IMG/VR virus record: IMGVR_UViG_3300045988_175036
Location: 52,290-116,289 of that record
Strand: one strand, 5' to 3'
DNA length: 64,000 bases
Origin: a virus
Shown here: positions 1,323 to 56,000 of the stretch, in pieces
Layout of the letters: each line of letters opens with the position of its first letter
Numbering within the stretch: the first letter of the stretch is position 1
Position numbers and translations under genes: made by a program
The notes under the pieces: model-generated
Seen by the model: the letters and a program-made list of their open reading frames with translations, nothing else
What the model was told of the DNA's origin: nothing
The model's database searches: none

Positions 1323-3551
1323 TTAGTTACAGTGAGAGTAACCGCATTCCTTACAGATATCGCAGCCGCCGCTATGCTCCAAAACCGCGTCGCACTCTGG
1401 ACAACGCTCTCCGAACTTTTGTGATTTCTTTTTCTTTGGTTCCTCTAAATATCCCAATTCTTCTTGAACTTCTTTCCACATATCCATCAGTGCATTGCCT
1501 ATTGCCATTGGGCAACACGCGCCCTTAGATGTATCATGCTTTGTGGCTGTCCTAATAGCATAACTAGGACAAGCACCAGTTGAATTGAGCTGGTCTTGAA
1601 TATCATTTATGCTAACTCCAGCTCTACAGGCAAGAGAAACCATTCGAGATAATCCAACCATATAGTTGGAACATCCCCCCAAACTACCTTTTGTAAAGAA
1701 CACTTCAACTAAATCACCATAAACTGGTTCAAAGAACCCAAGAACATGAGTTGAGCCGCAACCATTGATTATTTTTCTTTTCTTTCCAATCAAGTCGTCC
1801 GCACACTTCATAATTTCTCCACGTTTTAATTCTTTATGAGAAATTTCTTCTTCTTTTTTATTTTCTGTAGTCAAAATGCCAAGGCGCTTACAACCATCTC
1901 TGAACATGGTAATACCTTTACACCCAGACGACCAAGCAAGTAGATACATATGTGCAATATCATCTTTAGTTGCAGAATTTGGCATATTTACTGTAGAACT
2001 AATTGCTGTATCAACATGTTTTTGCATTACAGCTTGTGTTAGCACTCTACTCTGCCAAGAGATATCAGCTGAACCGACAAAATAATCTGGTAGCTCTTTT
2101 GTATTATTTATCTCCATATATTCGCGTGCTGCTTTACAATAAACATCGTAGTAGGCATCTTCTCCATCTGTCATGCCTACTGTTCTTCTTGTATATTTTA
2201 GCGCAAATTCTGGCTCACAACCACCACTTTCTCCTAGTAGAGTAGCTAATGAACCAGTTGGAGCAATTGAAACTAAACTACAATTTCTTAAGCCATATTC
2301 TTTTAGTTTAGTTATTTCATCAGGACTAAAATGAAATTTTATGATATCACTATCAAAAATTTCTTCTTTGTATTTTGGATACGGACCGAACTCTTTTGCC
2401 AATTCGTTGCTTGCAAGGACCGCGCGTCTAAAGATAAGAGAAAAGACATCATCAGTAAATTCAATAGCCTCTGGCGAGCCATATCGGAAGCCGAGCTTCA
2501 TAAGGGCCGTTGCATAGCCAAAGATACCTAGGCCAATATTTCTATAGTTATAAGACATATCTCTTTGCTGTTGTAAAGGGTGTCTGTTATAATTTTCATC
2601 AATAAGTTTATCAAGAGTTTTAATACCAACATCAATTGCCGATAGTAAGTCCGCTGTATTGAGGTGAGCTTGTGGTGTATAAGGGTTTACAATAAATTCA
2701 GAAAGATTCAGGGAAGATAGACAGCAAGCGCCATGTTTGGGGAGCGGTTGCTCGCCACAAGGATTACAAGTCTCAATCTCATAATCTTCATCGAATTGCA
2801 TCAAATTATAATTTCTAAATTTGTTGGTAAAGAGGCAAGCGGGGTCAGCCCAATCATAACAATTATCAACTAGCATTTTGAAAATTTCGATTGGGGTAAC
2901 ATCATATTCTATTTCATGCCCGGAGTAGTTTCGCTTTTCGTGTAGTACTACAACTTCTCCAGTGTCATAATATTTCTCAACAGCTCGCATAAATTCGTCA
3001 TCAAGTTCAAGAGACAAATTGGCTTTTTCAATTTCCCCTTCTTTTGACTTTATTTTTATAAAAGTCTCTGCTTCTTTATGCCGTGCGTCAATAGAAAGCA
3101 TTAGCGCACCCTTGCGCGCACCTCCTTGTGAAGTTCCCGCTGTGACTTCATTGAAAATTTTCATAAAAGGAACAATTCCATCAGAATAGTATTCAGTTTT
3201 TATTGGAGTTCCCTTTGGGCGTAATTTTGTAAGAGAAATTCCTTGGCCGCCTTGTGCTTTGAAAGTAATGCCAATGTCTTTTGCGGCATCCATAATGTCG
3301 TAGTAATCATCTTCAATATACCCTCTTGAATAACAATTGAATAAACTGCCAGTATTATTAAGACCTCTATTTGCTAAAGTGCGCCCGCCCATCAAGAACT
3401 TTTTCTCGATAATTAGTTTTCGTAATTCATTATCTCCTGCACTTACTCTATCTAGCCATTCTTCAAAACTTTCATTATTGTGTCGATATTTACGTTGCCA
3501 GATGTCTTGCGCGAGTTGATTATTTTCTCCAAGCCAATCCTTTACGGTCAT
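1323..3551 (-). CDS. nrdJ: class II (adenosylcobalamin-dependent) ribonucleotide reductase
   Basis: Active-site TCNPCGEQPL. C-terminal Cys-rich zinc finger CPECD...CDICKECGYSHC, typical of class II RNRs. Start refined to ATG 3551 (GGAGG 7 nt upstream, ATGA overlap with the upstream stop). Confidence 0.85.
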   Translation of the reverse strand: MTVKDWLGENNQLAQDIWQRKYRHNNESFEEWLDRVSAGDNELRKLIIEKKFLMGGRTLANRGLNNTGSLFNCYSRGYIEDDYYDIMDAAKDIGITFKAQGGQGISLTKLRPKGTPIKTEYYSDGIVPFMKIFNEVTAGTSQGGARKGALMLSIDARHKEAETFIKIKSKEGEIEKANLSLELDDEFMRAVEKYYDTGEVVVLHEKRNYSGHEIEYDVTPIEIFKMLVDNCYDWADPACLFTNKFRNYNLMQFDEDYEIETCNPCGEQPLPKHGACCLSSLNLSEFIVNPYTPQAHLNTADLLSAIDVGIKTLDKLIDENYNRHPLQQQRDMSYNYRNIGLGIFGYATALMKLGFRYGSPEAIEFTDDVFSLIFRRAVLASNELAKEFGPYPKYKEEIFDSDIIKFHFSPDEITKLKEYGLRNCSLVSIAPTGSLATLLGESGGCEPEFALKYTRRTVGMTDGEDAYYDVYCKAAREYMEINNTKELPDYFVGSADISWQSRVLTQAVMQKHVDTAISSTVNMPNSATKDDIAHMYLLAWSSGCKGITMFRDGCKRLGILTTENKKEEEISHKELKRGEIMKCADDLIGKKRKIINGCGSTHVLGFFEPVYGDLVEVFFTKGSLGGCSNYMVGLSRMVSLACRAGVSINDIQDQLNSTGACPSYAIRTATKHDTSKGACCPMAIGNALMDMWKEVQEELGYLEEPKKKKSQKFGERCPECDAVLEHSGGCDICKECGYSHCN

Positions 3552-26949: not shown

Positions 26950-28005
26950 TTGGAGCTAAGCAAAACTCAAGAAGAAATTTTGGCGTCATCTGCTTCTGTT
27001 GTATTTGTTCAATCTTGTGCGAGTAGCGGGAAAACGAGATTATTGACTGAGAAAATTCGCCAATCTATCTCGCGTGCGAAAAAGCTGGTAGCTTTTACTT
27101 TTACAAACATGGCGGCAGCAGAAATTCGTAGTAGATTGAATGTTGAAAATAGTGATGTAATTTGGATCGGCACTATCCATTCTTACTGCGCGAGATGCTT
27201 GTTGCGCGCGGGAATTACAGAAGCAGGAAAGTATTTGAATAATGAAAATTTTGATGGTCTTTTTGACCTTGCGCGAAGCCATCCAAGGGCTTTTCCTTCT
27301 TTAGACATTTGCCTACTGGATGAAGCGCAGGATAGTAATGAAGATCAATTCAATTTTATTTTTTCAATTATCAAAAGTGCGGAATACTTTGTAGTTTATG
27401 ATGAGCGGCAGTCTATTTATCGATGGAATGGAAGTAGACCAGATCTTTTGAAATATTGGGCTTACGAACTAAACGCTTCTATTTATTCAATGGATGAAAA
27501 TTATCGTAATGGTAGCGATATTCTTGATTTTGCGCGGGATATTATTAGAAAAAATAAAATGAGTGATTTATCTATTCCGATGCGTGGAGTGCGTGGGAGG
27601 GTCATTGAAGTTCCTTTTTCTATCAAGTATCTTGTTGATGAAATCAAGTCCACTTCTAATTATGGCGATTGGATGGTGCTCGCGCGCACGAATGCGGAAG
27701 TAGATAATATTTTTGATAAGTTGACTGATGCTGGAATTCCATGCGATACATTCAAGCAAGGTGACCTGTCAAAAGATGAGCTAAGCGAAAAAATGAAAGC
27801 AGATACTGTGAAGGTTCTTACCATTCACTCAAGCAAAGGACTTGAGACACGCTATGTAGCTGTATATGATAGCCGGATGTGGAACGAAGAAGAAGTCTGT
27901 ATTTCTTATGTTGCGGCGACTCGCGCGCGTGATCGCCTAATTTGGTTTACTAAACCAGTTGTAAAAAAGAAACCTCGAAGAAACTCAATGACGAGTTGGG
28001 AGTAA
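26950..28005 (+). CDS. UvrD/Rep-family helicase (compact, 351 aa)
   Basis: Walker A CASSGKT, Walker B LLDEAQD, and the C-terminal motifs TIHSSKGLE and YVAATRARDRL. Confidence 0.75.
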   Translation: MELSKTQEEILASSASVVFVQSCASSGKTRLLTEKIRQSISRAKKLVAFTFTNMAAAEIRSRLNVENSDVIWIGTIHSYCARCLLRAGITEAGKYLNNENFDGLFDLARSHPRAFPSLDICLLDEAQDSNEDQFNFIFSIIKSAEYFVVYDERQSIYRWNGSRPDLLKYWAYELNASIYSMDENYRNGSDILDFARDIIRKNKMSDLSIPMRGVRGRVIEVPFSIKYLVDEIKSTSNYGDWMVLARTNAEVDNIFDKLTDAGIPCDTFKQGDLSKDELSEKMKADTVKVLTIHSSKGLETRYVAVYDSRMWNEEEVCISYVAATRARDRLIWFTKPVVKKKPRRNSMTSWE

Positions 28006-28007
28006 AT

Positions 28008-28934
28008 ATGGAAAAAATATCAGCATTACTTTTTATGGTTTCTGCTGTTGTTTTTCTAATTCTTTTCATTGGACAAAAAAAGAAAATAAAGCAAAAAAAT
28101 TATGAAATTGAGCAACTAAAAGAAAAGAATAAAAAAGATGCTGAAAATTTTTGGAAAGACTTGGATGTGGCAGAACAAAAAGTTTATGAAGATAATCACA
28201 AAAAGAGAAATGAGCGACTTCAGCAATTGAATGAAATTATTGCTAAGCAAGAAACTTTTCAAGTGAATAGAAAATCTTCAATTGAAGAAGAAATCCAAGA
28301 ACTCCGTTTACAAAAGCTTCAGCAGCTTCAAAATCAGCTTATCATAGATAAAGCGCAAATTGACCAAGATAAAAGAGATTATGAATTAGAACTTGAAAAG
28401 GTGAAGTGCGAACTTTCTCAATTTCAAGCAAAGCGCCAAGCAGTGAATGAAGCGATTCGGCGCGAGCGTGAAGTTGAGGAAAAAGAGGATTTCTATCGCA
28501 TTTGTCTTTTGCCAGAAGAAATTGAAGATATAGAAGTCTTGAAAAGTTTGGCACCAAGGCTTCGGCATCGTGAAATAGTTCCAAAACTAATGTGGGATAC
28601 AATGGTTTCGCGTGCGACGAAGGAAATGATAAAGCGAGTAACAGGTGGCCGCGCAGTTGGTGGTATTTACAAAATTACCTATATTCCAACTGGTGAATCT
28701 TATATTGGGAAAACGACTGATTTTGGAACACGTTGGCAATCACACGTCCAAACCGCGCTTGGTATGGAGAAAGTTGCTCGTTCAACTCTTCATGTACATA
28801 TGGCTTCTCATGGAATTCAAAACTATACTTTTGAAATTTTGGAAGAGGTTGCGCGCGAAAAGCAAACAGAAAGAGAAAAATTTTATATTGAGCTTTATGG
28901 GACGCAAAAACAGTTGAATATGAGGATTGGTTGA
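28008..28934 (+). CDS. N-terminal transmembrane (TM) helix, long coiled coil, C-terminal GIY-YIG nuclease domain
   Basis: Hydrophobic N-terminus ISALLFMVSAVVFLILFI, about 150 aa rich in E/K/Q heptads, then GGIYKITYIPTGESYIGKTTDFGTRWQSH. Confidence 0.65.
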   Translation: MEKISALLFMVSAVVFLILFIGQKKKIKQKNYEIEQLKEKNKKDAENFWKDLDVAEQKVYEDNHKKRNERLQQLNEIIAKQETFQVNRKSSIEEEIQELRLQKLQQLQNQLIIDKAQIDQDKRDYELELEKVKCELSQFQAKRQAVNEAIRREREVEEKEDFYRICLLPEEIEDIEVLKSLAPRLRHREIVPKLMWDTMVSRATKEMIKRVTGGRAVGGIYKITYIPTGESYIGKTTDFGTRWQSHVQTALGMEKVARSTLHVHMASHGIQNYTFEILEEVAREKQTEREKFYIELYGTQKQLNMRIG

Positions 28935-29750: not shown

Positions 29751-30842
29751 ATGAGTTTTATAATTGATGGCGTTGATTTTGAAAATCTTGAAGCTGAGAA
29801 GTATTGGAGTTTTACTTCTTCCTATACGCCTGAAAGAAAGAAACGAGAAGCAATCAACATGGTTTATTCTGGAGATTATCTTGGGGCGCGGAAGATGGAC
29901 GGAGCGTATTATCGAGCTATAATCTCTGAGGATGGCGAACTTCGTCTACAAGGCCGATCTAAGTCCGTAAAGGGAGGATACCTAAACAAAATTGATTGGG
30001 TTCCTCATTTGAAGTCTTTCTTTGAGGCTCTTCCGCGAGGAACCTGTTTACTTGGCGAAGTCTACTTCCCAAAGAATGAAGGTTCTTATAACACAACTAC
30101 AATTATGGGCTGTCTTGCGCCTAAAGCAGTCGCGCGCCAAGAAACAGGAGAAAAACTTCACTATTATGTTTTTGATATTTGGGCTTATGACGGAGAAAGC
30201 TATTTGAATAAGACAGCAGAAGAGCGTTTTACAATGATTCAGAATCTTCCCAAGTCAGATTATGTTGAGTTTGCTCAATACTATGAAGGCGCTGAGTTGT
30301 GGCAGAAATATCAAGAAATTTTGGCTGAAGGTGGAGAAGGTGTTGTTATTACTCGACGTGATTCTAAACCACAACCCGGTAAACGCAGCGTGCGGAAGAC
30401 TCTTAAACTGAAGAAAGAACTTCAAGAAACACTTGATGTCTTTATCTATGGTGGAAATCCTCCGACCCGTCTTTATTCTGGAAAAGAAATCGAAAACTGG
30501 CAGTATTGGCAAAATACTGTTACGCATGAACTTATGTGCGGCGACCATTATAAGGAATATTTTGAGGGTGATACAATTGAACCTGTCACAAAAATGTATT
30601 ATATGCGTGGTGCTGGTAGTCTAAAGATTGGCGCGTATAAGGATGGAAAACCGGTTCAGATTGGTAGTTTGAGTGGTTTAGATGATGAGATTTTGTTGAA
30701 TTGGAAGGACTATATTGGGAAGGTCGCAGAGGTTACTTGTATGGAGGTTCTGCCTACAGGAGGATTGCGCCATAGTCGTTTCTTAGGTTGGCGCGTCGAT
30801 AAGGTTCCTCGCGATTGCCAGTGGGAGACAATTTTTGGTTGA
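29751..30842 (+). CDS. ATP-dependent DNA ligase
   Basis: Motif I RKMDG, III LLGEVYF, IIIa YYVFDIW, IV EGVVIT, V LKLKK, VI LRHSRFLGWRVDK. Confidence 0.85.
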   Translation: MSFIIDGVDFENLEAEKYWSFTSSYTPERKKREAINMVYSGDYLGARKMDGAYYRAIISEDGELRLQGRSKSVKGGYLNKIDWVPHLKSFFEALPRGTCLLGEVYFPKNEGSYNTTTIMGCLAPKAVARQETGEKLHYYVFDIWAYDGESYLNKTAEERFTMIQNLPKSDYVEFAQYYEGAELWQKYQEILAEGGEGVVITRRDSKPQPGKRSVRKTLKLKKELQETLDVFIYGGNPPTRLYSGKEIENWQYWQNTVTHELMCGDHYKEYFEGDTIEPVTKMYYMRGAGSLKIGAYKDGKPVQIGSLSGLDDEILLNWKDYIGKVAEVTCMEVLPTGGLRHSRFLGWRVDKVPRDCQWETIFG

Positions 30843-32066: not shown

Positions 32067-32702
32067 TTATTTTCCTCCATTTTTCCAAGTATATCCACCA
32101 GCCGTTAGACGTTTTCCACGGCAGACTTCGCTAATATGATTATACCAAATCCCAGTAGCTAATTGTGCGTCTTTATATGAAGTATATGAAGCTATAAAAT
32201 TTCCTTGTAAGTCATACTGCTCTACAATATGCTTTTGTTTTGCAGTGCGAATAGCATAGCCTCTTTTCTTAATATCTTCTTCTGAAAGTTTTAATTCTTG
32301 TTTTATATAAAAAGAAATTGTTTCTATAGTTGAATTGGTTAATTTTCGAATATCTCTAATACAATATCCGTTTTGATATAAATCAATTATAGTTGAAATT
32401 TCTTTTTGGGTTAGGAAGCGAGTTCCTTCGCCGCCTCTAGTTGAATTATAACCTTCTTCATAAGAATTATAAAAATCAATCCAATAAATTTCTCGTTCAT
32501 TGATAATATCATTAGAACATTCTTCAATTGATTCAATAGAAAAGTTTTTTACTCCATATTTTCTAAAGGCCCGATAGATTTTGAAATCTTTATCTTTAAT
32601 ACTATTAAGATGTTCTTTCCATCGTTCTTCAATAGTTCTGGTTGTTTTTCCAACGTAAACTTTATCATTTATAGTATTTGTAATTTTATAAATAAATCCC
32701 AT
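32067..32702 (-). CDS. GIY-YIG homing endonuclease (free-standing)
   Basis: GFIYKITNTINDKVYVGKTTRTIEERWKEH plus a C-terminal DNA-binding-like region. Opposite orientation to the flanking genes. Confidence 0.8.
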   Translation of the reverse strand: MGFIYKITNTINDKVYVGKTTRTIEERWKEHLNSIKDKDFKIYRAFRKYGVKNFSIESIEECSNDIINEREIYWIDFYNSYEEGYNSTRGGEGTRFLTQKEISTIIDLYQNGYCIRDIRKLTNSTIETISFYIKQELKLSEEDIKKRGYAIRTAKQKHIVEQYDLQGNFIASYTSYKDAQLATGIWYNHISEVCRGKRLTAGGYTWKNGGK

Positions 32703-34631: not shown

Positions 34632-34957
34632 GCTATTTGGCGCACGACAGAAACTTACCGTGAATGTCTGAAGTGGCCTCAGTTGGGAAGGCTTACCAGC
34701 TTTATAAAAACCGAGCAATCAAGACAAAGTATTAGCTACACTTTGAGGAAGCAAAGAGGTGGGCGGGAGTCGGCTCTCCCGTAGCTAGAAACCGATTACA
34801 GGGTTAAGCGCAAGACGCTTAGGCCAAGCTATGATGTCATATTTCCGGGGCAATTTCGGTAGTATGACGGAGCTTTTGTCAAGGGTTAGGAGATTTCCAC
34901 AGATTGCCTAGGGGTCTACCTCGTAGGAGACTACCGAAAGAAAATCTCCATCTTTAT
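34632..34957 (+). ncRNA. ORF-free GC-enriched structured spacer A
   Basis: Hairpins GGGAG-tcgg-CTCCC and TAAGCG-caaga-CGCTTA. Long-range pair TCGGTAGT (34856) with ACTACCGA (34931). Downstream of the 34434 promoter. Confidence 0.4.
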
Positions 34958-35052
34958 CCTGCCTTAGCACAACGGTAGTGCAACCGGTTTATGCCCGGCA
35001 TACGGCTCCAGATTAGGGCGCGATCTCGGTTCGAATCCGAGGGGCAGGACCA
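34958..35052 (+). tRNA. atypical 95-nt tRNA-like gene; anticodon loop UUUAUGC (UAU, Ile-type) with a 25-nt extra arm and encoded CCA
   Basis: Acceptor CCTGCCT/GGGCAGG, D arm GCAC-AACGGTA-GTGC, anticodon stem CCGG/CCGG, T arm CTCGG-TTCGAAT-CCGAG. The extra region does not fit class I or class II rules. Confidence 0.5.
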
Positions 35053-35255
35053 AAGGTATCCAAACTACCTTAATCGTTTGGTGAGGACTCAAGTTACTAA
35101 AGTTAGGTCAGCTTGACATCCAACAGAGACGACCTACACAGGTGAGACAGGTGAGAATGACGGCTTAGTCCTTTCTTGAATAAACAGAACCTGACCCGTT
35201 TTGGCGCCAAGGGTGAACGCTGCTTGAAGGTAAAGAAAGGCAATAAATTTTATAT
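35053..35255 (+). ncRNA. ORF-free structured spacer B
   Basis: No ORF; GC-enriched; lies between two tRNA(-like) genes. Confidence 0.35.
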
Positions 35256-35332
35256 GGGAGCATAGCTCAGTTGGTTAGAGCGCATGACTGTTAATCATGA
35301 TGTCGAAGGTTCAAGTCCTTCTGTTCCCGCCA
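35256..35332 (+). tRNA. tRNA-Asn (GUU)
   Basis: GGGAGCA TA GCTC AGTTGGTTA GAGC G CATGA CTGTTAA TCATG ATGTC GAAGG TTCAAGT CCTTC TGTTCCC G CCA. Confidence 0.9.
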
Positions 35333-35617
35333 AATGATGGCGAGTAGTGCGAATAGAAAAGATAAGAACGAAATAGTACCTTTTATGGTGGATAAACCTA
35401 TTATTCACTTATTGAATCTATTGGAGTCACGCACGGCTCCGCTTGCTATCATTACCAACGGATAAAACTTGTTGTGAGCAAACTTACAAGTTACCTTTTT
35501 GACCTCACAAACAACTATGCAAGCATATCTTACGCGCAAACTAGATATGACTCCCTCTGGGAGAAAGGTGATTGCGCGGCCGGTTAGCGCTCCTGTCTAA
35601 GTTCAAAGCGCGTTATA
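35333..35617 (+). ncRNA. ORF-free structured spacer C
   Basis: No ORF; GC-enriched; lies between tRNA genes. Confidence 0.35.
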
Positions 35618-35684
35618 TCCCCTTTTAGTGTAATGGTTAGCACAGCAATTGAGGGCAAGAGTGGTTCGATCCCACAGAGGGGAG
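35618..35684 (+). tRNA. degenerate tRNA-like element lacking an anticodon arm (67 nt, no CCA)
   Basis: Acceptor TCCCCTT/GAGGGGA, D arm GTGT-AATGGTTA-GCAC, T arm GTGG-TTCGATC-CCAC. Only about 16 nt (containing CAATTG) sit where 23 are expected. Confidence 0.3.
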
Positions 35685-35764
35685 TCAAAGATAAAATTAT
35701 CTTTTCTACACGGAGAAACTATTGATTCCGAAAACTATCCAATACAAATTGAAAGGAAATTTTT

Positions 35765-36025
35765 ATGGAAAAGATTTTTGAACTCTGTAAAGAGCGTGAT
35801 ATCAGGTGTTATTTCAGTTATTGGAAGCTCGACGATTCTATTCATTTTGCTTTCACTAGAACATTTGCTGGCCAAGATTGTAAATTTATACAGGTCGTTC
35901 CGATCAAGGATATTAATAATAATTCTCATGTTATCGGACAGTACATTGCAGAACTTATTGAAGACAAGCTGTCGGATGAGAATTGTAGAAAAATGATTCT
36001 CGACAGAATTGAAAAGCTTCTTTGA
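35765..36025 (+). CDS. hypothetical protein (86 aa) inside the RNA island
   Basis: ORF track; AT-rich like the other coding DNA; AAAGGA RBS. Confidence 0.4.
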   Translation: MEKIFELCKERDIRCYFSYWKLDDSIHFAFTRTFAGQDCKFIQVVPIKDINNNSHVIGQYIAELIEDKLSDENCRKMILDRIEKLL

Positions 36026-36097
36026 AATCTATTTTTATAATAAGAAAAATAGGTACACTACTTCTTTTATGTTTCGTAGTAGCTGGATTTATAAATA

Positions 36098-36175
36098 TCC
36101 TCTATTGGTGTAATGGTAGCACACTTCCCGTCAAGGAAGAGGGGTCGGTTCGATTCGATATCCTGCATAGAGGAC
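36098..36175 (+). tRNA. degenerate tRNA-like element
   Basis: Perfect acceptor TCCTCTA/TAGAGGA and D arm GTG-TAATGGTAG-CAC. Anticodon stem CTTCC/GGAAG has a 6-nt loop CGTCAA. The T arm is disrupted (GTCGG-TTCGATT-CGATATCCTGCA). Confidence 0.3.
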
Positions 36176-36361
36176 GGCTTGACACAGCCGGAGTGTTATC
36201 TCTGGCATACGGATTAGCGTATGCAAAGCATTTGTCTTCGGATGGTAAAATGCGAGAGAAGTCATCCCCTTGAACTTCTCACTACATACATCCCCAGCGG
36301 TTGTTATGCTGAGACCGATGGCGCGACGGTCGTTTATAATATCGCGCCATTTGTCTAAAAT
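36176..36361 (+). ncRNA. ORF-free structured spacer D
   Basis: Hairpins GCATACG-gattag-CGTATGC (36205-36224) and ATGGCGCGA-N15-TCGCGCCAT (36318-36350). 36185-36217 resembles 34981-35016. Confidence 0.35.
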
Positions 36362-36397
36362 GCGGGTGTAGTATAATGGTTATTATGTCTGCCTTCC

Positions 36398-36861
36398 TTC
36401 TAAACTTAATGCGTTAGATATATATGGAGCAATTATCAACTCAATTTAAAGGCGATGTGACTGAACTTTTAGTTAGTGCATATTTACTAAAATTAGGTTA
36501 TGTAGTATCTAAACCTTTAACCCAAGATAGTAAATATGATTTAATTGTAGATATTAACCATAAGTTAATTCGTATTCAGGTTAAAACTGCAAGACTAAAT
36601 GATCGGACCATTGGCAAAAGTATTAAGTTTAATTGTAGAAGTACCACAAACAATGTAAGAGAATGCAAACAGCGATATTATTCGCCAGAAGATGTAGATT
36701 ATTTTGCAACATATTGGGATAATGTAGTATATTTAATCCCAGTTACTGAATGTAGTGCTGAGAAAATTTTATGGATAGATAAGCCTACATATAAAAACAG
36801 TTGTTTTGCAAATGATTATCTGGCAGAGGAGGTATTACAACGCATTTAAGCATTGGAAGGG
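36398..36861 (+). mobile_element. homing-endonuclease cassette / atypical tRNA intron
   Basis: The ORF fills 426 of 464 nt. The ends form a helix: 36405-36415 with 36839-36850, and 36393-36397 with 36855-36859. Confidence 0.6.
36424..36849 (+). CDS. PD-(D/E)XK homing endonuclease, I-Ssp6803I-like
   Basis: FKGDVTELLVSAYLLKLGYVVSKPLTQDSKYDLIVDINHKLIRIQVKTAR matches the intron-associated PD-(D/E)XK endonuclease family pattern. Confidence 0.7.
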   Translation: MEQLSTQFKGDVTELLVSAYLLKLGYVVSKPLTQDSKYDLIVDINHKLIRIQVKTARLNDRTIGKSIKFNCRSTTNNVRECKQRYYSPEDVDYFATYWDNVVYLIPVTECSAEKILWIDKPTYKNSCFANDYLAEEVLQRI

Positions 36862-36984
36862 AAGCAGAAGATGGGGCTTCGATTGCCCTCACTCGCTCCA
36901 CCGCCCCATGGGAAGTTTGCCTCCAATAAGTCTCATGACCACTACTAGATTGCACTAGTTGACTGAATAAAGGTGGTTTTATAT

Positions 36985-37061
36985 GCACTTGTAGCTCAGT
37001 TGGTAGTAGCAATTGCCTTTTAAGCAATGGGTCGGGCATTCGAGTTGCCCCAAGTGCACCA
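36985..37061 (+). tRNA. tRNA-Lys (UUU)
   Basis: GCACTTG TA GCTC AGTTGGTA GTAGC..., anticodon arm CAATTGC CTTTTAA GCAATGG, T arm GGGCA TTCGAGT TGCCC, then CAAGTGC A CCA. Confidence 0.9.
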
Positions 37062-37141
37062 CTTTATTTGGAATCAATAGCTTGTCCACCTTTGGGCGAC
37101 CCGTAATAGCCGGACATTTGAAAATTTCTTCTCGTAAATGT

Positions 37142-37170
37142 TTGAAATTTTTCTGATTTTTTGATATAAT
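37142..37170 (+). promoter_or_regulatory. sigma-A type promoter, conserved cassette
   Basis: TTGAAA, 17 nt, TGaTATAAT, then ATTTACAGAAAGTGAGGG. Confidence 0.65.
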
Positions 37171-37196
37171 ATTTACAGAAAGTGAGGGAAACGAAA

Positions 37197-37373
37197 ATGG
37201 AAACTGAAACTCCGTGGAAGCCCGAAGTAAAGAAAATGTCTCCCGAACAACTTGAGAAGTGGACGGCGCTCCGTAAAAAGTGTCAAGTCTTTCCTTCTCG
37301 AAAACCATATTCGCGCAAAATCAAACATAAAAATCGAGAAAAAGAAAAAGAAAAAGAAGAAAACGAAATTTGA
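37197..37373 (+). CDS. small, highly basic protein (58 aa)
   Basis: ORF track frame; ATG 37197 after GAGGGA. Encodes METETPWKPEVKKMSPEQLEKW...KEKEKEENEI. Confidence 0.35.
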   Translation: METETPWKPEVKKMSPEQLEKWTALRKKCQVFPSRKPYSRKIKHKNREKEKEKEENEI

Positions 37374-37398
37374 AAAACTTCTAAAATTTTGGTATAAT
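37370..37398 (+). promoter_or_regulatory. sigma-A type promoter, conserved cassette (drives 1.6 kb of non-coding RNA)
   Basis: TTGAAA, 17 nt, TGgTATAAT, then ATTTATACAAGATGAGAG. Confidence 0.65.
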
Positions 37399-37489
37399 AT
37401 TTATACAAGATGAGAGAGAGAGGAACTGGTCTTTTCCTTTCTACCAGTTCCTCTCTCAGAAAGTCCTAATGTGGCTTACTTGAAAACTA

Positions 37490-37563
37490 TCCGATGTAGT
37501 TCAACTGGTTAGAACACCGCATTGATAAAGCGGAGCTGTCGGTTTGAGATCCGGCCTTCGGGT
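37490..37563 (+). tRNA. tRNA-Ile (GAU)-like, irregular
   Basis: D arm GTTC-AACTGGTTA-GAAC and anticodon loop TTGATAA. There is an A.A pair at 31:39, an 8-nt T-loop (GTCGG-TTTGAGAT-CCGGC), a U.U mismatch in the acceptor stem, and no CCA. Confidence 0.45.
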
Positions 37564-37959
37564 AGTTGGTAAGCAGTCCCAAGCCTGCATAAACACAGAG
37601 GGAGACTAATAGCGGTATTACAGTGGCCAATGTAATATCCAAAATTTCGAGACAGGCAAGTCTTCAGGCAGTAGATGTCTGATAAAACAACGACGGCGAA
37701 GGAGTCGCGACCTTCGGAGGAGCCGAGATAAACCTACGGGGAACCGCCATCGGAGAAAAGGAATTTATTAGTCAAATCAGTTTCGTGGTTCTGGGACTCA
37801 AAACCACCTCGCGCAGTTCTTACGGCGCAATATAAATAGGATGGGCGCTATCTGACATGGCGTGACGTTCAGAAGTTTCGATGCGTGGGCTTACCTATAA
37901 AACTCATGCTGGGTCTTTGGAGCCTTTTACCTCCTGTGTGAAACAAAAGGCTCGTATAT
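37564..37959 (+). ncRNA. ORF-free structured spacer G (about 395 nt)
   Basis: Hairpins ATTACA-N8-TGTAAT, CGAAGG-N8-CCTTCG, GTGGTT-N11-AACCAC and GAGCCTTTT-N17-AAAAGGCTC (37918-37952). Confidence 0.4.
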
Positions 37960-38045
37960 GCAAGTGTGGTGGAAATGGCATACACATCTGATTCAAGCTC
38001 AGATGCCCACTGGGATTAAGGGTTCGACTCCCTTCACTTGTACCA
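37960..38045 (+). tRNA. tRNA-Leu (CAA), class II
   Basis: GCAAGTG ... TCTGA TTCAAGC TCAGA, 14-nt variable arm TGCCCACTGGGATT, T arm AAGGG TTCGACT CCCTT, then CACTTGT A CCA. Confidence 0.85.
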
Positions 38046-38966
38046 GAAATTCGTGTCCCGCTAAGCTCTATAATGATTGTGGCGAGGCTAAGGCGTTGGC
38101 AGATAAGGGGCAACCGCACGAATTAGAATATTGCGCAGGTCGTCTAACAGTAGGACGCCAGACTCATTATCTGGAGACAACGTGCAACTCGTTCGTGCGC
38201 AACCATTCGCTTTGGCGAAACTCTCGTAGAGGATGGATTTTACGGTTCAACTACCACCGGCTTCCGAGCCCGACCGCTATGGCTGACAACGAAGATATGT
38301 GGCTTTGTCATTTGCCGAGAGTATAATAAATAAAAACGAAAGCAAACCGTTTATTTGTTCCTTGAAAATAAAATATCTTAGAACTCGATGACAAACATTC
38401 TGTGACTAGGAATGTCGAGGCGTTTTGAAAAGGGCGGCAGACAACGAACAAGGATACTTGTGGATACTGACCGGTGCGCGTGACGTGAGTTGCGTGCCAG
38501 AGAGGATGGACTCCCAACCCTAAGAGGCGGCATCGAGATTAACGCGAGTAAAGGTAGGACGCGCGTCGCTGGCGTAATAGAGGCTTTCAAGATAATTGAG
38601 AGCTGAATCCTAATCTCCCTTAGTTGGTGACTGTGGGTAAATCATTTGATTAGGAAATAACCACAAGCCAGTTTGTTGTGAAGCGAAGAAATTCGTGTAT
38701 AAGACGTGTATGTGGCCTCTGAGTAGCCAAAGACAAGCACAATAATGATTATTGATAATAAAAATCAAGAACTTGCTGAATGGCTGGTGAAAGGTTCTGG
38801 TAATCAATCCAGAAGAGACTACGCGCACGAAGGTGCGGCTATGGGAAGTATGCGCGGGACGCTGCGTATGCTCAGCCCCATGGTGCTCTTGACTGAATAT
38901 ACTTGAAGTTAGTTTTCGGTAGGTTGAAGAACCCATAGATATTTTATTTTCAGGGAACAAATCCCT
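38046..38966 (+). ncRNA. large ORF-free structured region H (about 920 nt), candidate giant ncRNA(s)
   Basis: GC-enriched; only short overlapping track ORFs on both strands. Long-range pair 38048-38055 with 38117-38124. GAAATTCGTGT is repeated at 38046 and 38688. Ends at the 38967 terminator. Confidence 0.45.
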
Positions 38967-55110: not shown

Positions 55111-55184
55111 TTACACTTAGAAAAGCTGAAGAACGAATTAAGCGAACCGCAGTATAGACTGATATTTTGAAAGGAGAAGAAGGT

Positions 55185-56000
55185 ATGCCTGTAAATGATG
55201 AACTTGGTAAAAGAATGAAAGAGTTTTATGAATCGGTTCCTAAGACTCGACTTGTGCGGAAAACCCCCGTTGCAATTCGTATCGATGGTAAGGCTTTTCA
55301 TACATTCACACGTGGTTTCGAGAAGCCGTTTGATAGGGTTTTAATGAAGGCAATGCAAGAGACAATGAGATATTTGTGTAAGAATATTCAGGGTTGTGTA
55401 TTCGGCTATACACAGAGTGACGAAATTACGCTTATTCTTATTGATTATCAGAAGCTTGACTCTGATGCTTGGTTTGGCTATGAAGTTCAAAAGATTTGCA
55501 GCATCTCCGCATCGATGGCAACTATGGCGTTCAATAGATATTTTAAAGAACTAATTGAGGATTGCTGTATGACTGATCCGAGAGCATCTTTCGAAACTAG
55601 AAATGTATATATCGATGCTTGCGAACGTGGGGCAATGTTTGATGCTCGTTGCTTCAATATCCCAAAGGAAGAAGTCTGCAATCTGATCTATTGGCGCCAG
55701 CTCGATGCAATCCGTAATTCTATTCAGATGGTCGGTCAAGCATTTTTCTCGTCGAAGGAACTTCATGGCAAGTCCTGCAATAAGATTCTGGACATGCTTC
55801 ACGAGGAGAAGAATGTCAATTGGCATAATTTCCCGATTGCCTGTCAGAGAGGGGTTGCTTGCTTGAAAATTGCTCAAAGAGTTAATATTGCCGGAACTAT
55901 GGACACTATCTCGACTTGGGATATTGATTTTAATATACCAATTCTTAAAGGCGATGACCGTAAGTATGTTGATGATTTGATTTATGTAAAGGAGGATTAA
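55185..56000 (+). CDS. Thg1-like protein (tRNA-His guanylyltransferase / 3'-5' polymerase family)
   Basis: VAIRIDGKAFHTFTRGFEKPFD and GYTQSDEITLIL contain the catalytic Asp and Asp-Glu residues of the Thg1/TLP family. ATG 55185 follows AAGGAG. Confidence 0.75.
   Translation: MPVNDELGKRMKEFYESVPKTRLVRKTPVAIRIDGKAFHTFTRGFEKPFDRVLMKAMQETMRYLCKNIQGCVFGYTQSDEITLILIDYQKLDSDAWFGYEVQKICSISASMATMAFNRYFKELIEDCCMTDPRASFETRNVYIDACERGAMFDARCFNIPKEEVCNLIYWRQLDAIRNSIQMVGQAFFSSKELHGKSCNKILDMLHEEKNVNWHNFPIACQRGVACLKIAQRVNIAGTMDTISTWDIDFNIPILKGDDRKYVDDLIYVKED

Follow-up and report, generated by a model that had tools for sequence, protein, structure and literature searches.

Can a tRNA gene that is interrupted by little more than a protein-coding sequence still give a functional tRNA, or has the interruption killed it? 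The question is raised by a tRNA-Gly(UCC) gene in a stretch of virus DNA, positions 52,290-116,289 of the IMG/VR record IMGVR_UViG_3300045988_175036, the full 64,000 nt of which are called the window hereafter. An earlier note had described this gene as split just after the anticodon by a homing-endonuclease cassette with no room for a conventional ribozyme, and had left two explanations, an enzyme-dependent splicing route or a gene inactivated by invasion. These two remain the live explanations. We put at about one in two the chance that the insert is a mobile, ribozyme-free tRNA intron that would be removed by a protein endonuclease and a ligase. L-numbers designate the related loci and contigs that were compared.

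The insert and its boundaries

Joining 36362-36397 to 36862-36900 yields a canonical 75-nt tRNA-Gly(UCC), as called by ARAGORN on the joined sequence. Its parts are a 7-bp acceptor stem with one G.U (G1:C72, C2:G71 and G3:C70 at its end), the anticodon stem TCTGC/GCAGA, the loop CUUCC/AA (the slash marks the junction), a T arm, U73 and an encoded CCA. Neither ARAGORN in its default mode nor Rfam called a tRNA at 36362-36900. The insert, 36398-36861, is 464 nt long, and its position between C36 and A37 is fixed by intronless alleles. When viral contigs were searched for exact matches to the joined anticodon arm, 26 were found, seven of them syntenic with the window (L117, L118, L120, L132, L137, L119 and L129) at 80-99% identity over the aligned segments (91-99% in five). 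The alignment of all seven to the window breaks between 36397 and 36862, where the subject is gapless. The limits of the insert are exact because these intronless relatives run contiguously across the breakpoint; there is neither sliding ambiguity nor target duplication. Most of the 13 intronless alleles compared are identical to both window exons. This comparison with uninterrupted relatives, which had been proposed in the earlier note, together with ARAGORN, bears out the split at nt 36/37 and the 75-nt joined length. ARAGORN in intron mode placed the junction after nt 34, giving a tRNA-Pro(UGG); this call is ruled out by the intronless alleles, and also by U73 together with G1:C72, C2:G71 and G3:C70.

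The exon-exon sequence of the spliced or intronless tRNA-Gly is TGTCTGCCTTCC/AAGCAGAAG, and the intronless tDNA, the presumed target of the endonuclease, is TCTGCCTTCCAAGCAGA. Were the intron circular, its end joined to its start would read GGAAGGG/TTCTAAAC.

The open reading frame (ORF) within the insert has the coordinates given earlier, 36424-36849, and leaves a noncoding part of 26 nt on its 5' side and 12 nt on its 3' side. Its product matches PF11645 (PDDEXK_5; E 1.3e-23, 84 bits against a cut-off of 26.1) and PDB 2OST (E 8e-10), an entry named 'Putative endonuclease' by the search tool and which we take to be I-Ssp6803I. D39, Q52, V53 and K54 are invariant in 20 homologues, and D39, Q52 and K54 are the presumed catalytic residues (D...QxK). 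These matches and residues confirm the assignment to the I-Ssp6803I-type PD-(D/E)XK endonucleases.

The same 464-nt insert was found in L001, L034-L036 and L141-L150 and is absent from other near-identical phages; intron-bearing phages also include IMGVR_UViG_3300045988_176959. Among close relatives in IMG/VR it is the minority state, one with the intron against 5-7 without, and the assembly collection lists the identical protein in 84 blocks, on contigs of up to 122 kb among the 24 read. An assembly artefact or a one-off is ruled out, the same allele being present in many independent assemblies and a relative in a cultured phage. L037 carries an intron that is 95.6% identical in a different tRNA-Gly(UCC) body, with no homology in the flanks; its similarity to the window ends within the tRNA, where the anticodon arm is identical, and L153 has an uninterrupted version of the L037-type tRNA-Gly. 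Presence/absence and transfer into another tRNA-Gly body are signatures of a homing element that targets the anticodon arm. The endonuclease gene sits at its presumed target, which relatives carry as an uninterrupted allele. At the DNA level, the sequence comparisons support well a homing endonuclease cassette at a polymorphic site. Two compensatory changes were seen in intron-bearing alleles, G19:C56 to A19:U56, with an intermediate in L036, and G52:C62 to A52:U62 in L149; both keep the tRNA fold.

A family of ORF-only inserts in phage tRNA genes

The polymorphism among near-identical phages and the large family to which the insert belongs both go beyond what the earlier note had described. 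The endonuclease has 167 homologous proteins (52-100% identity among the 120 matches listed), and the related loci amount to 113, of which 28 are viral, 5 genome and 80 metagenome sequences, from human gut and rumen. By locating the anticodon stems and then running ARAGORN on the joined sequence, 94 copies were resolved as ORF-only inserts at 36/37 in tRNA anticodon loops. Their hosts are tRNAs Thr-UGU (37 copies), Gly-UCC (25), Ser-GCU (12), Gly-GCC (5), Asn-GUU (3), Ala-UGC (3), Pro-UGG (2), Lys-UUU and a few others. Insert length varies between 437 and 492 nt, apart from two inserts of about 657 nt with a 205-residue ORF; the ORF always fills nearly the whole insert.

The anticodon, U33, a purine at 37 and the type of tRNA body are mutually consistent in all 94 resolved copies. 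All 12 tRNAs called as Ser-GCU are long when mature (74-92 nt; 85-92 nt in 11 of them), consistent with a long variable arm, and both Pro tRNAs carry G37, in agreement with the junction rule. Endonuclease clades match tRNA species in 64 of 71 nearest neighbours, and endonucleases within one tRNA class have diverged to 46-54% identity. Several phages hold two or three such inserts per tRNA array. One host is cultured: in Enterococcus phage EFP01, which infects E. faecium, comparison with the intronless phage iF6 revealed a 463-nt PD-(D/E)XK insert between U36 and A37 of tRNA-Asn(GUU). Its exons would join through CTGTT/AACCAGT to 73 nt, and a circular form of the intron would close as GAAAGC/TTTTCT. 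In Schiekvirus, 29 other records have an uninterrupted tRNA-Asn, and the intron is present in 1 of 31 records.

Endonuclease ORFs across the family are intact apart from in-frame stop codons, and no frameshifts were found. In-frame TAG codons occur in L021, L030, L041, L047, L048, L052, L053, L059, L075, L088, L099, L101, L108 and L111, seven being aligned with Gln; L077 and L096 have TGA instead. On the evidence of these alignments, such codons probably reflect reassignment of a stop codon by the phages and not decay. ORF-less mini-introns of the same architecture (12-419 nt) were not found in about 700 kb, bar one 23-nt match in L123 that is probably spurious. ARAGORN in intron mode did report short ORF-less insertions, in L004 at 1654-1802 (72 nt), L014 at 1092-1211 (36 nt) and L021 at 901-1036 (49 nt). 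The 72-nt insertion, in a tRNA-Lys of L004, has complementary ends (ATCGCA/TGCGAT). These three have another architecture and may be false calls.

A second family of inserts was also found, in tRNA-Lys(UUU), which is split at 36/37 or 37/38 by about 601 nt that are nearly all ORF and encode an HNH protein. Their ends pair (ATGTAATT/AATTACAT) but an internal loop faces the anticodon.

A full-text literature search gave no account of ORF-only, ribozyme-free tRNA introns in phages or bacteria, and this widespread insert family has apparently not been described so far.

A helix that holds both junctions

When the region was folded, as the earlier note had suggested, the minimum free energy (MFE) structure extended the anticodon stem by a rod of about 26 bp, and the cloverleaf can be kept. 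Compensatory changes maintain the rod in every tRNA class. At the base of the rod C32 stands opposite A38, both unpaired. A first helix (P1) follows, then a 1x2 internal loop (AAAC/GCAUUG) and a second helix (P2) that joins the 5' leader to the end of the ORF and its stop codon. In the window P1 consists of U33:A37, U34.G, C35:G and C36:G, then six intron-intron pairs, the last three intron nucleotides (GGG) being paired with the anticodon. P2 is the pairing of the insert ends that had already been noticed (36405-36415 with 36839-36850), and it was recovered in both MFE and duplex folds. In other loci its partners covary (CTCAGT/ACTGAG, CCTTAGT/ACTAAGG, CTTATAC/GTATAAG and CTTCGCAA/TTGTGAAG). 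The AAAC/GCAUUG motif is absent from some subfamilies (L023, L025 and EFP01). The region folds better than its shuffles (z = -2.9) and the architecture recurs in the 94 resolved copies; therefore the structure is not due to chance.

Pair counts were made on 70 non-redundant family members in an ungapped register, with i counted from the start of the intron and j backwards from its end. The family helix comprises U33:A37, the anticodon with the last three intron nucleotides, and i1-7 with j4-10 (6-7 bp). Pairing was found for 34:j1 in 60 of the 70 members, for 35:j2 in 70, 36:j3 in 67, i1:j4 in 69 and i3:j6 in 70, and the three anticodon positions each use several pair types. The pair 35:j2 is made by CG (32), GC (16), GU (18), UA (3) or UG (1). 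Over 55 distinct constructs 93.0% of cells are paired, against 58.7% in shuffles (0/500), and double-sided changes occur in 15 of 16 pairs (covariation score 0.89 vs 0.23). When the register is slid by 1-3 nt, only 29-46% remain paired. Cognate intron ends give a mean of -18.0 kcal/mol, compared with -6.5 for combinations across tRNA classes and -6.2 after shuffling. The last three intron nucleotides follow the anticodon: GGR for UCC, ACA or AUA for UGU, and AGC for both GCU and GUU.

Both junctions thus lie within one helix, on opposite strands, 3 bp apart and without bulges. They are related by a dyad through nt 35, which leaves the anticodon as a 3-nt 3' overhang and coincides with the middle of a segment of about 17 bp between the tRNA core and the conserved internal loop. 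With the pairing rebuilt for one anticodon after another, and with its symmetry, the structure indicates a function at the RNA level that is centred on the junctions. Pairing matched to the anticodon would be needless for a purely DNA-level parasite.

The earlier note had drawn a different register, in which CTTCC (36393-36397) pairs with GGAAG (36855-36859), and had seen in its 4-nt bulge a likeness to the bulge-helix-bulge (BHB) motif. That pairing is possible in the window, but it is not the register of the family: positions 32-36 with j3-j7 form 5/5 pairs in Gly and a mean of 4.2/5 in Thr, and fail in Ser, Asn, Pro and Lys. The BHB likeness is not supported, the bulged register being confined to the Gly and Thr classes and the conserved helix having no bulges. 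Scans for pairings over more than 500 nt returned mostly halves of neighbouring tRNAs and were discarded. The coordinates of all features are collected in the table.

Table. Features of the split tRNA-Gly gene in the window and of split tRNA genes in other loci; i and j, intron positions counted from its start and backwards from its end.
Feature	Position	Strand	Evidence or remark
tRNA-Gly(UCC) 5' exon, nt 1-36, last nt C36 of anticodon	36362..36397	+	ARAGORN, intronless relatives
Intron/insertion, 464 nt, between nt 36 and 37	36398..36861	+	Alignment breakpoints vs L117, L118, L120, L132, L137
tRNA-Gly 3' exon, A37 to U73 and CCA (36898-36900)	36862..36900	+	ARAGORN, intronless relatives
Anticodon stem 5' strand TCTGC, nt 27-31	36388..36392	+	ARAGORN; covaries with 36864-36868 across family
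Anticodon stem 3' strand GCAGA, nt 39-43	36864..36868	+	ARAGORN, family covariation
P1 5' strand: U33, U34-C36, i1-i6; holds 5' junction 36397/36398	36394..36403	+	MFE, duplex folds, covariation
P1 3' strand: j9-j1, A37; holds 3' junction 36861/36862	36853..36862	+	MFE, duplex folds, covariation
5' motif AAAC; A36404 unpaired in 1x2 loop, C36405 opens P2	36402..36405	+	Conserved in Gly, Thr, Asn and Ser classes; duplex fold
3' motif GCATTG, immediately 3' of stop codon; C36851 and A36852 unpaired in loop	36850..36855	+	Conservation, duplex fold
P2 5' strand, in 5' untranslated stretch of ORF	36405..36415	+	MFE, duplex folds
P2 3' strand, last ORF codons and stop; T36847 bulged	36839..36850	+	MFE, duplex folds
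Homing endonuclease ORF, 141 residues, PD-(D/E)XK, I-Ssp6803I family, stop TAA 36847-36849	36424..36849	+	PF11645, PDB 2OST, PHROG 5018
Split tRNA-Asn of EFP01	L140 2432-2967 = KY549443.1 105242-105777		Intron at 105242-105704; GenBank: no tRNA annotated, ORF hypothetical
tRNA-Lys(UUU) split by HNH insert, ORF of 178 residues	L037 757-1434; L153 465-1142; L154 524-1201		HNH_3, E 3e-7

Search for a ribozyme

Group I and group II covariance models of Rfam gave no match in the window at the gathering threshold, and none in 36250-37000 even at E<=10. In 20 related loci there was no match at gathering, and in six loci no group I match at E<=1. The only group II-family match, to a plastid group II-D1 model on the opposite strand of L006 (E 0.55, 26 bits where gathering requires 140), is noise. 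Along the ORF, synonymous diversity (normalised entropy, 71 codon-aligned sequences) is flat: it averages 0.58, the means of 7-codon windows stay within 0.45-0.70, and these sequences contain no constrained stretch of ribozyme size within the ORF.

The junction nucleotides were also compared. Across the family the intron can end in any of the four nucleotides (G, T, A or C), so no terminal-G rule holds; the last nucleotide of the 5' exon is C36 in all Gly introns and C (Gly) or U across the family. The end of the 5' exon pairs with the 3' end of the intron, and there is no internal guide near the intron 5' end. A conventional group I intron, with its conserved catalytic core (P3-P9) of about 200 nt, is ruled out by the Rfam scans, these junction nucleotides, the flat synonymous diversity and the 38 noncoding nt. 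A group II intron, an RNA of six domains including domain V and usually with a reverse-transcriptase ORF, is likewise rejected: Rfam gave no group II match in the insert, and the ORF encodes a 141-residue nuclease. The covariance search suggested by the earlier note thus returned nothing, and its claim that no conventional ribozyme is present agrees with these scans and with the unconstrained synonymous sites.

Comparison with known systems

The tRNA-fMet group I intron of Synechocystis PCC 6803 has 655 nt and a 150-residue ORF (PMC1995217). It shares with the window insert the endonuclease family (PF11645), a tRNA host gene and mobility as judged by presence/absence. The two differ in that about 200 nt lie beyond the ORF there, compared with 38 nt of 464 here, and in that the phage insert has no group I signature, terminal G or exon-final U and pairs its exon with the intron 3' end. 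Those approximately 200 nt form the self-splicing ribozyme of the Synechocystis intron, which presumably also lies at 36/37, just 3' of the anticodon. Bonocora and Shub reportedly found in 2001 that I-Ssp6803I cleaves tRNA-fMet DNA to either side of the anticodon, with 3-nt 3' extensions as the result. Such a DNA cut has the same geometry as the two RNA junctions described here.

BHB introns of archaea and eukaryotes resemble the insert in having no ribozyme, in the pairing of anticodon with intron (which we tested and found here) and in presenting an RNA of pseudo-two-fold symmetry around two cleavage sites; moreover, an endonuclease ORF can fill the intron and the tRNA body holds the exons. 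Some archaeal protein-spliced tRNA and rRNA introns carry LAGLIDADG homing endonucleases, for instance I-DmoI. The BHB motif has two 3-nt bulges that contain the splice sites, with a 4-bp helix between them. Here there are no bulges, 3 bp between the sites, a 36/37 position, a bacteriophage host and another endonuclease family. By analogy, archaeal protein-spliced introns with homing endonucleases appear to be the nearest functional analogues, though the insert lacks the BHB motif.

The intervening sequences that RNase III excises from 23S rRNA are bacterial, and their ends form a long helix (about 20 bp or more) that is cut by the host RNase with a 2-nt 3' stagger. Like them, the insert lacks a ribozyme and has ends that form a helix (the rod of about 26 bp). 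The 23S rRNA fragments are not re-ligated and the sequences have no ORF, and the stagger between the junctions here is 3 nt and not 2. A tRNA nicked beside its anticodon would not decode. Finally, T4 SegB is a free-standing endonuclease of a tRNA cluster; it favours its own transmission and cuts inside tRNA genes (PMC8421152). It too is a phage endonuclease tied to a tRNA array, but SegB lies between genes, whereas here the ORF is inside the anticodon loop, with structured and covarying ends.

Genomic neighbourhood

The split tRNA-Gly is one of an array of tRNA genes (34958-38201) in a large phage. Around the array lie genes for Pol III alpha, DnaB, gyrase A/B, ribonucleotide reductase, RecJ, RNase H, an ATP-dependent DNA ligase, PhoH and a Thg1-like protein. 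The latter (55167-56000; Pfam E 2.5e-31, PHROG 4717) is a tRNA-His guanylyltransferase-like enzyme acting on tRNA 5' ends.

Within and around the array, a drum RNA (34826-34953, 57 bits) abuts an unusually long, 95-nt tRNA-Ile(UAU) at 34958-35052, and L009 has a similar 95-nt tRNA-Ile(UAU) at 3196-3290. The segment 35053-35245, between tRNA-Ile and tRNA-Asn, aligns to no relative. A 1-kb spacer (35333-36361) gave no Rfam match, and its sole ORF (86 residues, 35765-36025) has no family match; a segment of about 208 nt (36066-36273) upstream of tRNA-Gly is absent in L117 and L120 and present in L118. At 38133-38201 Rfam found a tRNA (43.7 bits) that ARAGORN did not call.

A ROOL RNA (38360-38953, 286 bits) lies 1.5 kb downstream of the split tRNA-Gly, and in EFP01 another of 265 bits (L140 3430-4016) follows the split tRNA-Asn at a distance of about 460 nt. 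ROOL was rejected as a linked factor, no specific link being apparent: it is also found in intronless relatives and is absent within 2 kb in 20 other loci. Flanking tRNA arrays of other loci contained a RAGATH-33 RNA (L003 1182-1310, 127 bits) and a phage tmRNA (L023 1205-1552, 81 bits), and L012 a twister-P1-like match at 1566-1616 (41 bits, below the gathering score, E 6e-6).

The window has two further endonuclease ORFs, of the GIY-YIG type, within 26950-28934 and 32067-32702. That at 27996-28934 comes straight after a UvrD-type helicase ORF, whose end it overlaps, and may be another endonuclease insertion.

Protein-dependent splicing or a dead tRNA gene

The splicing route that we favour would run as follows. 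The endonuclease would cut intronless tRNA genes at the anticodon arm, and repair would copy the cassette in. In the transcript, a dimeric protein endonuclease would cleave both strands of the pseudo-symmetric helix; candidates for this step are the nuclease that the intron encodes, an RNase III-type enzyme or some other enzyme of host or phage. The tRNA body would keep both exons together after cleavage, and an RNA ligase would seal 36 to 37 to give a functional tRNA-Gly. The endonuclease mRNA would be released, closed by P1 and P2, with no ribozyme taking part. More tentatively, phages of gut Firmicutes may possess a large family of ribozyme-free tRNA introns that are cut and ligated by proteins alone at a dyad-symmetric, anticodon-paired helix, where their own PD-(D/E)XK nuclease may be the cutter, with the same 3-nt stagger as that reported for DNA. 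The absence of ORF-less derivatives, the intact ORFs and the fold-keeping compensatory changes in intron-bearing alleles are hints of splicing. A homing-endonuclease intron in a tRNA anticodon loop is of a known kind; there is a substantial chance that this one represents a new route of splicing.

Several observations weigh against protein-dependent splicing, and some of them fit the main rival, a possible but less probable explanation: that nothing is spliced, the cassette having invaded and inactivated a dispensable phage tRNA gene and spreading by homing in spite of its cost. Within the 64-kb window of a phage genome of about 117 kb, no candidate for an RNA ligase, RtcB or an RNA endonuclease was found (41 proteins scanned against Pfam), as a dead tRNA would have it. 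The nearest enzymes there are only an ATP-dependent DNA ligase, the Thg1-like enzyme, RNase H and PhoH, and the ligase, at 29751-30842, was rejected as a splicing enzyme on account of being the DNA ligase. Protein-based tRNA splicing is not known from bacteria. The 3-nt stagger misfits RNase III, which leaves 2 nt, and cleavage of A-form RNA would be unexpected for a DNA-specific PD-(D/E)XK enzyme. The HNH inserts, at the same place in tRNA-Lys and of similar make, have no anticodon pairing; this argues against the PD-(D/E)XK protein as the general splicing enzyme, and therefore any splicing activity is probably not that protein alone. A37 is changed to C in 4 of 16 near-identical intron-bearing alleles (L142, L146, L148 and L149), a lineage with no other differences, whose 3' junction GGGAA has become GGACA (the last intron nucleotide G to A, and A37 to C). 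Such a change is expected to harm a tRNA, and it was seen only in intron-bearing alleles: no intronless tRNA-Gly allele with C37 was found in IMG/VR, the single match being an unrelated sequence. The minority status of the intron (1 of 31 Schiekvirus records, 1 vs 5-7 in IMG/VR) also fits a dead gene, as does the lack of ORF-less derivatives, which is expected if selection acts on the ORF alone. The intact exons and the helix could be kept solely for processing and stability of the endonuclease mRNA. On that account the tRNA halves and the P1/P2 rod are retained because they are useful to the endonuclease: the cloverleaf would let RNase P and RNase Z cut the transcript from the tRNA array, and the closed rod would shield the mRNA like an engineered tRNA scaffold and might tune its translation. 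P2, joining the leader to the stop-codon region, fits such a role. A scaffold, however, needs neither a near-perfect pairing of anticodon and intron end, re-made for at least nine anticodons, nor a dyad-symmetric placement of the junctions. Nor does a dead gene account for the consistency of anticodon, U33, purine 37 and body in 94 of 94 copies despite 46-54% identity of the endonucleases, for phages with two or three interrupted tRNAs in one array, or for the spread of an identical intron-bearing allele over 84 collection blocks. The tRNA-Gly is otherwise strictly conserved in intronless relatives, and its loss should therefore be costly.

The remaining two explanations have the RNA spliced by other means. 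Self-splicing, by a group I-like core hidden in the ORF or by a new small ribozyme made of the rod and the AAAC/GCAUUG loop, is improbable. It draws some support from the short conserved motif beside the helix, from the z of -2.9 and from the only characterised relative of the endonuclease, which sits in a group I intron (PMC1995217). In the scans described above, however, Rfam models matched neither group I nor group II introns, the ORF leaves no more than 38 nt uncovered, and no synonymous stretch of ribozyme size is constrained. Exons ending in C or U and introns ending in G, T, A or C do not follow the U.G and terminal-G rules of group I; in addition, the 5' exon pairs with the intron 3' end, and the motif is missing in L023, L025 and EFP01. 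An archaeal-type BHB intron, cut by an EndA-like enzyme and joined by RtcB, is more improbable still. Archaeal BHB introns can hold homing endonuclease genes, protein-spliced pre-tRNAs feature a pairing of anticodon and intron, and in Gly and Thr the alternative register does put the 3' junction in a 4-nt bulge. That register, however, fails in Ser, Asn, Pro and Lys, on which ground the bulged BHB structure proposed earlier was rejected, and even where it forms the cuts would be asymmetric. The conserved structure is bulge-free with 3 bp, not 4 bp, between the sites, and the junction is at 36/37; the canonical position of archaeal and eukaryal tRNA introns is 37/38. No EndA homologue was found among the window proteins scanned, and no EndA is known from bacteria.

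Significance

The splicing of tRNA by proteins is considered characteristic of archaea and eukaryotes. Here, more than 100 phage tRNA genes are interrupted at one position by a near-pure endonuclease ORF in which no ribozyme was detected, and in at least seven tRNA species compensatory changes have kept the helix at the junctions intact. If these tRNAs are spliced, RNA is cut and rejoined in infected bacteria by an activity that has so far gone unrecognised. The bacterial world would then have its first case of tRNA splicing by proteins, and this would bear on the roles of bacterial RtcB and phage RNA ligases and on the origin of protein-spliced introns. If they are not spliced, the family offers a clean natural case of a selfish nuclease expressed from the tRNA scaffold that it destroys. 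The cultured phage EFP01 makes the splicing question directly testable. Either way, standard tRNA annotation overlooks such genes, and phage tRNA repertoires are undercounted, since both ARAGORN in default mode and Rfam missed the tRNA-Gly of the window.

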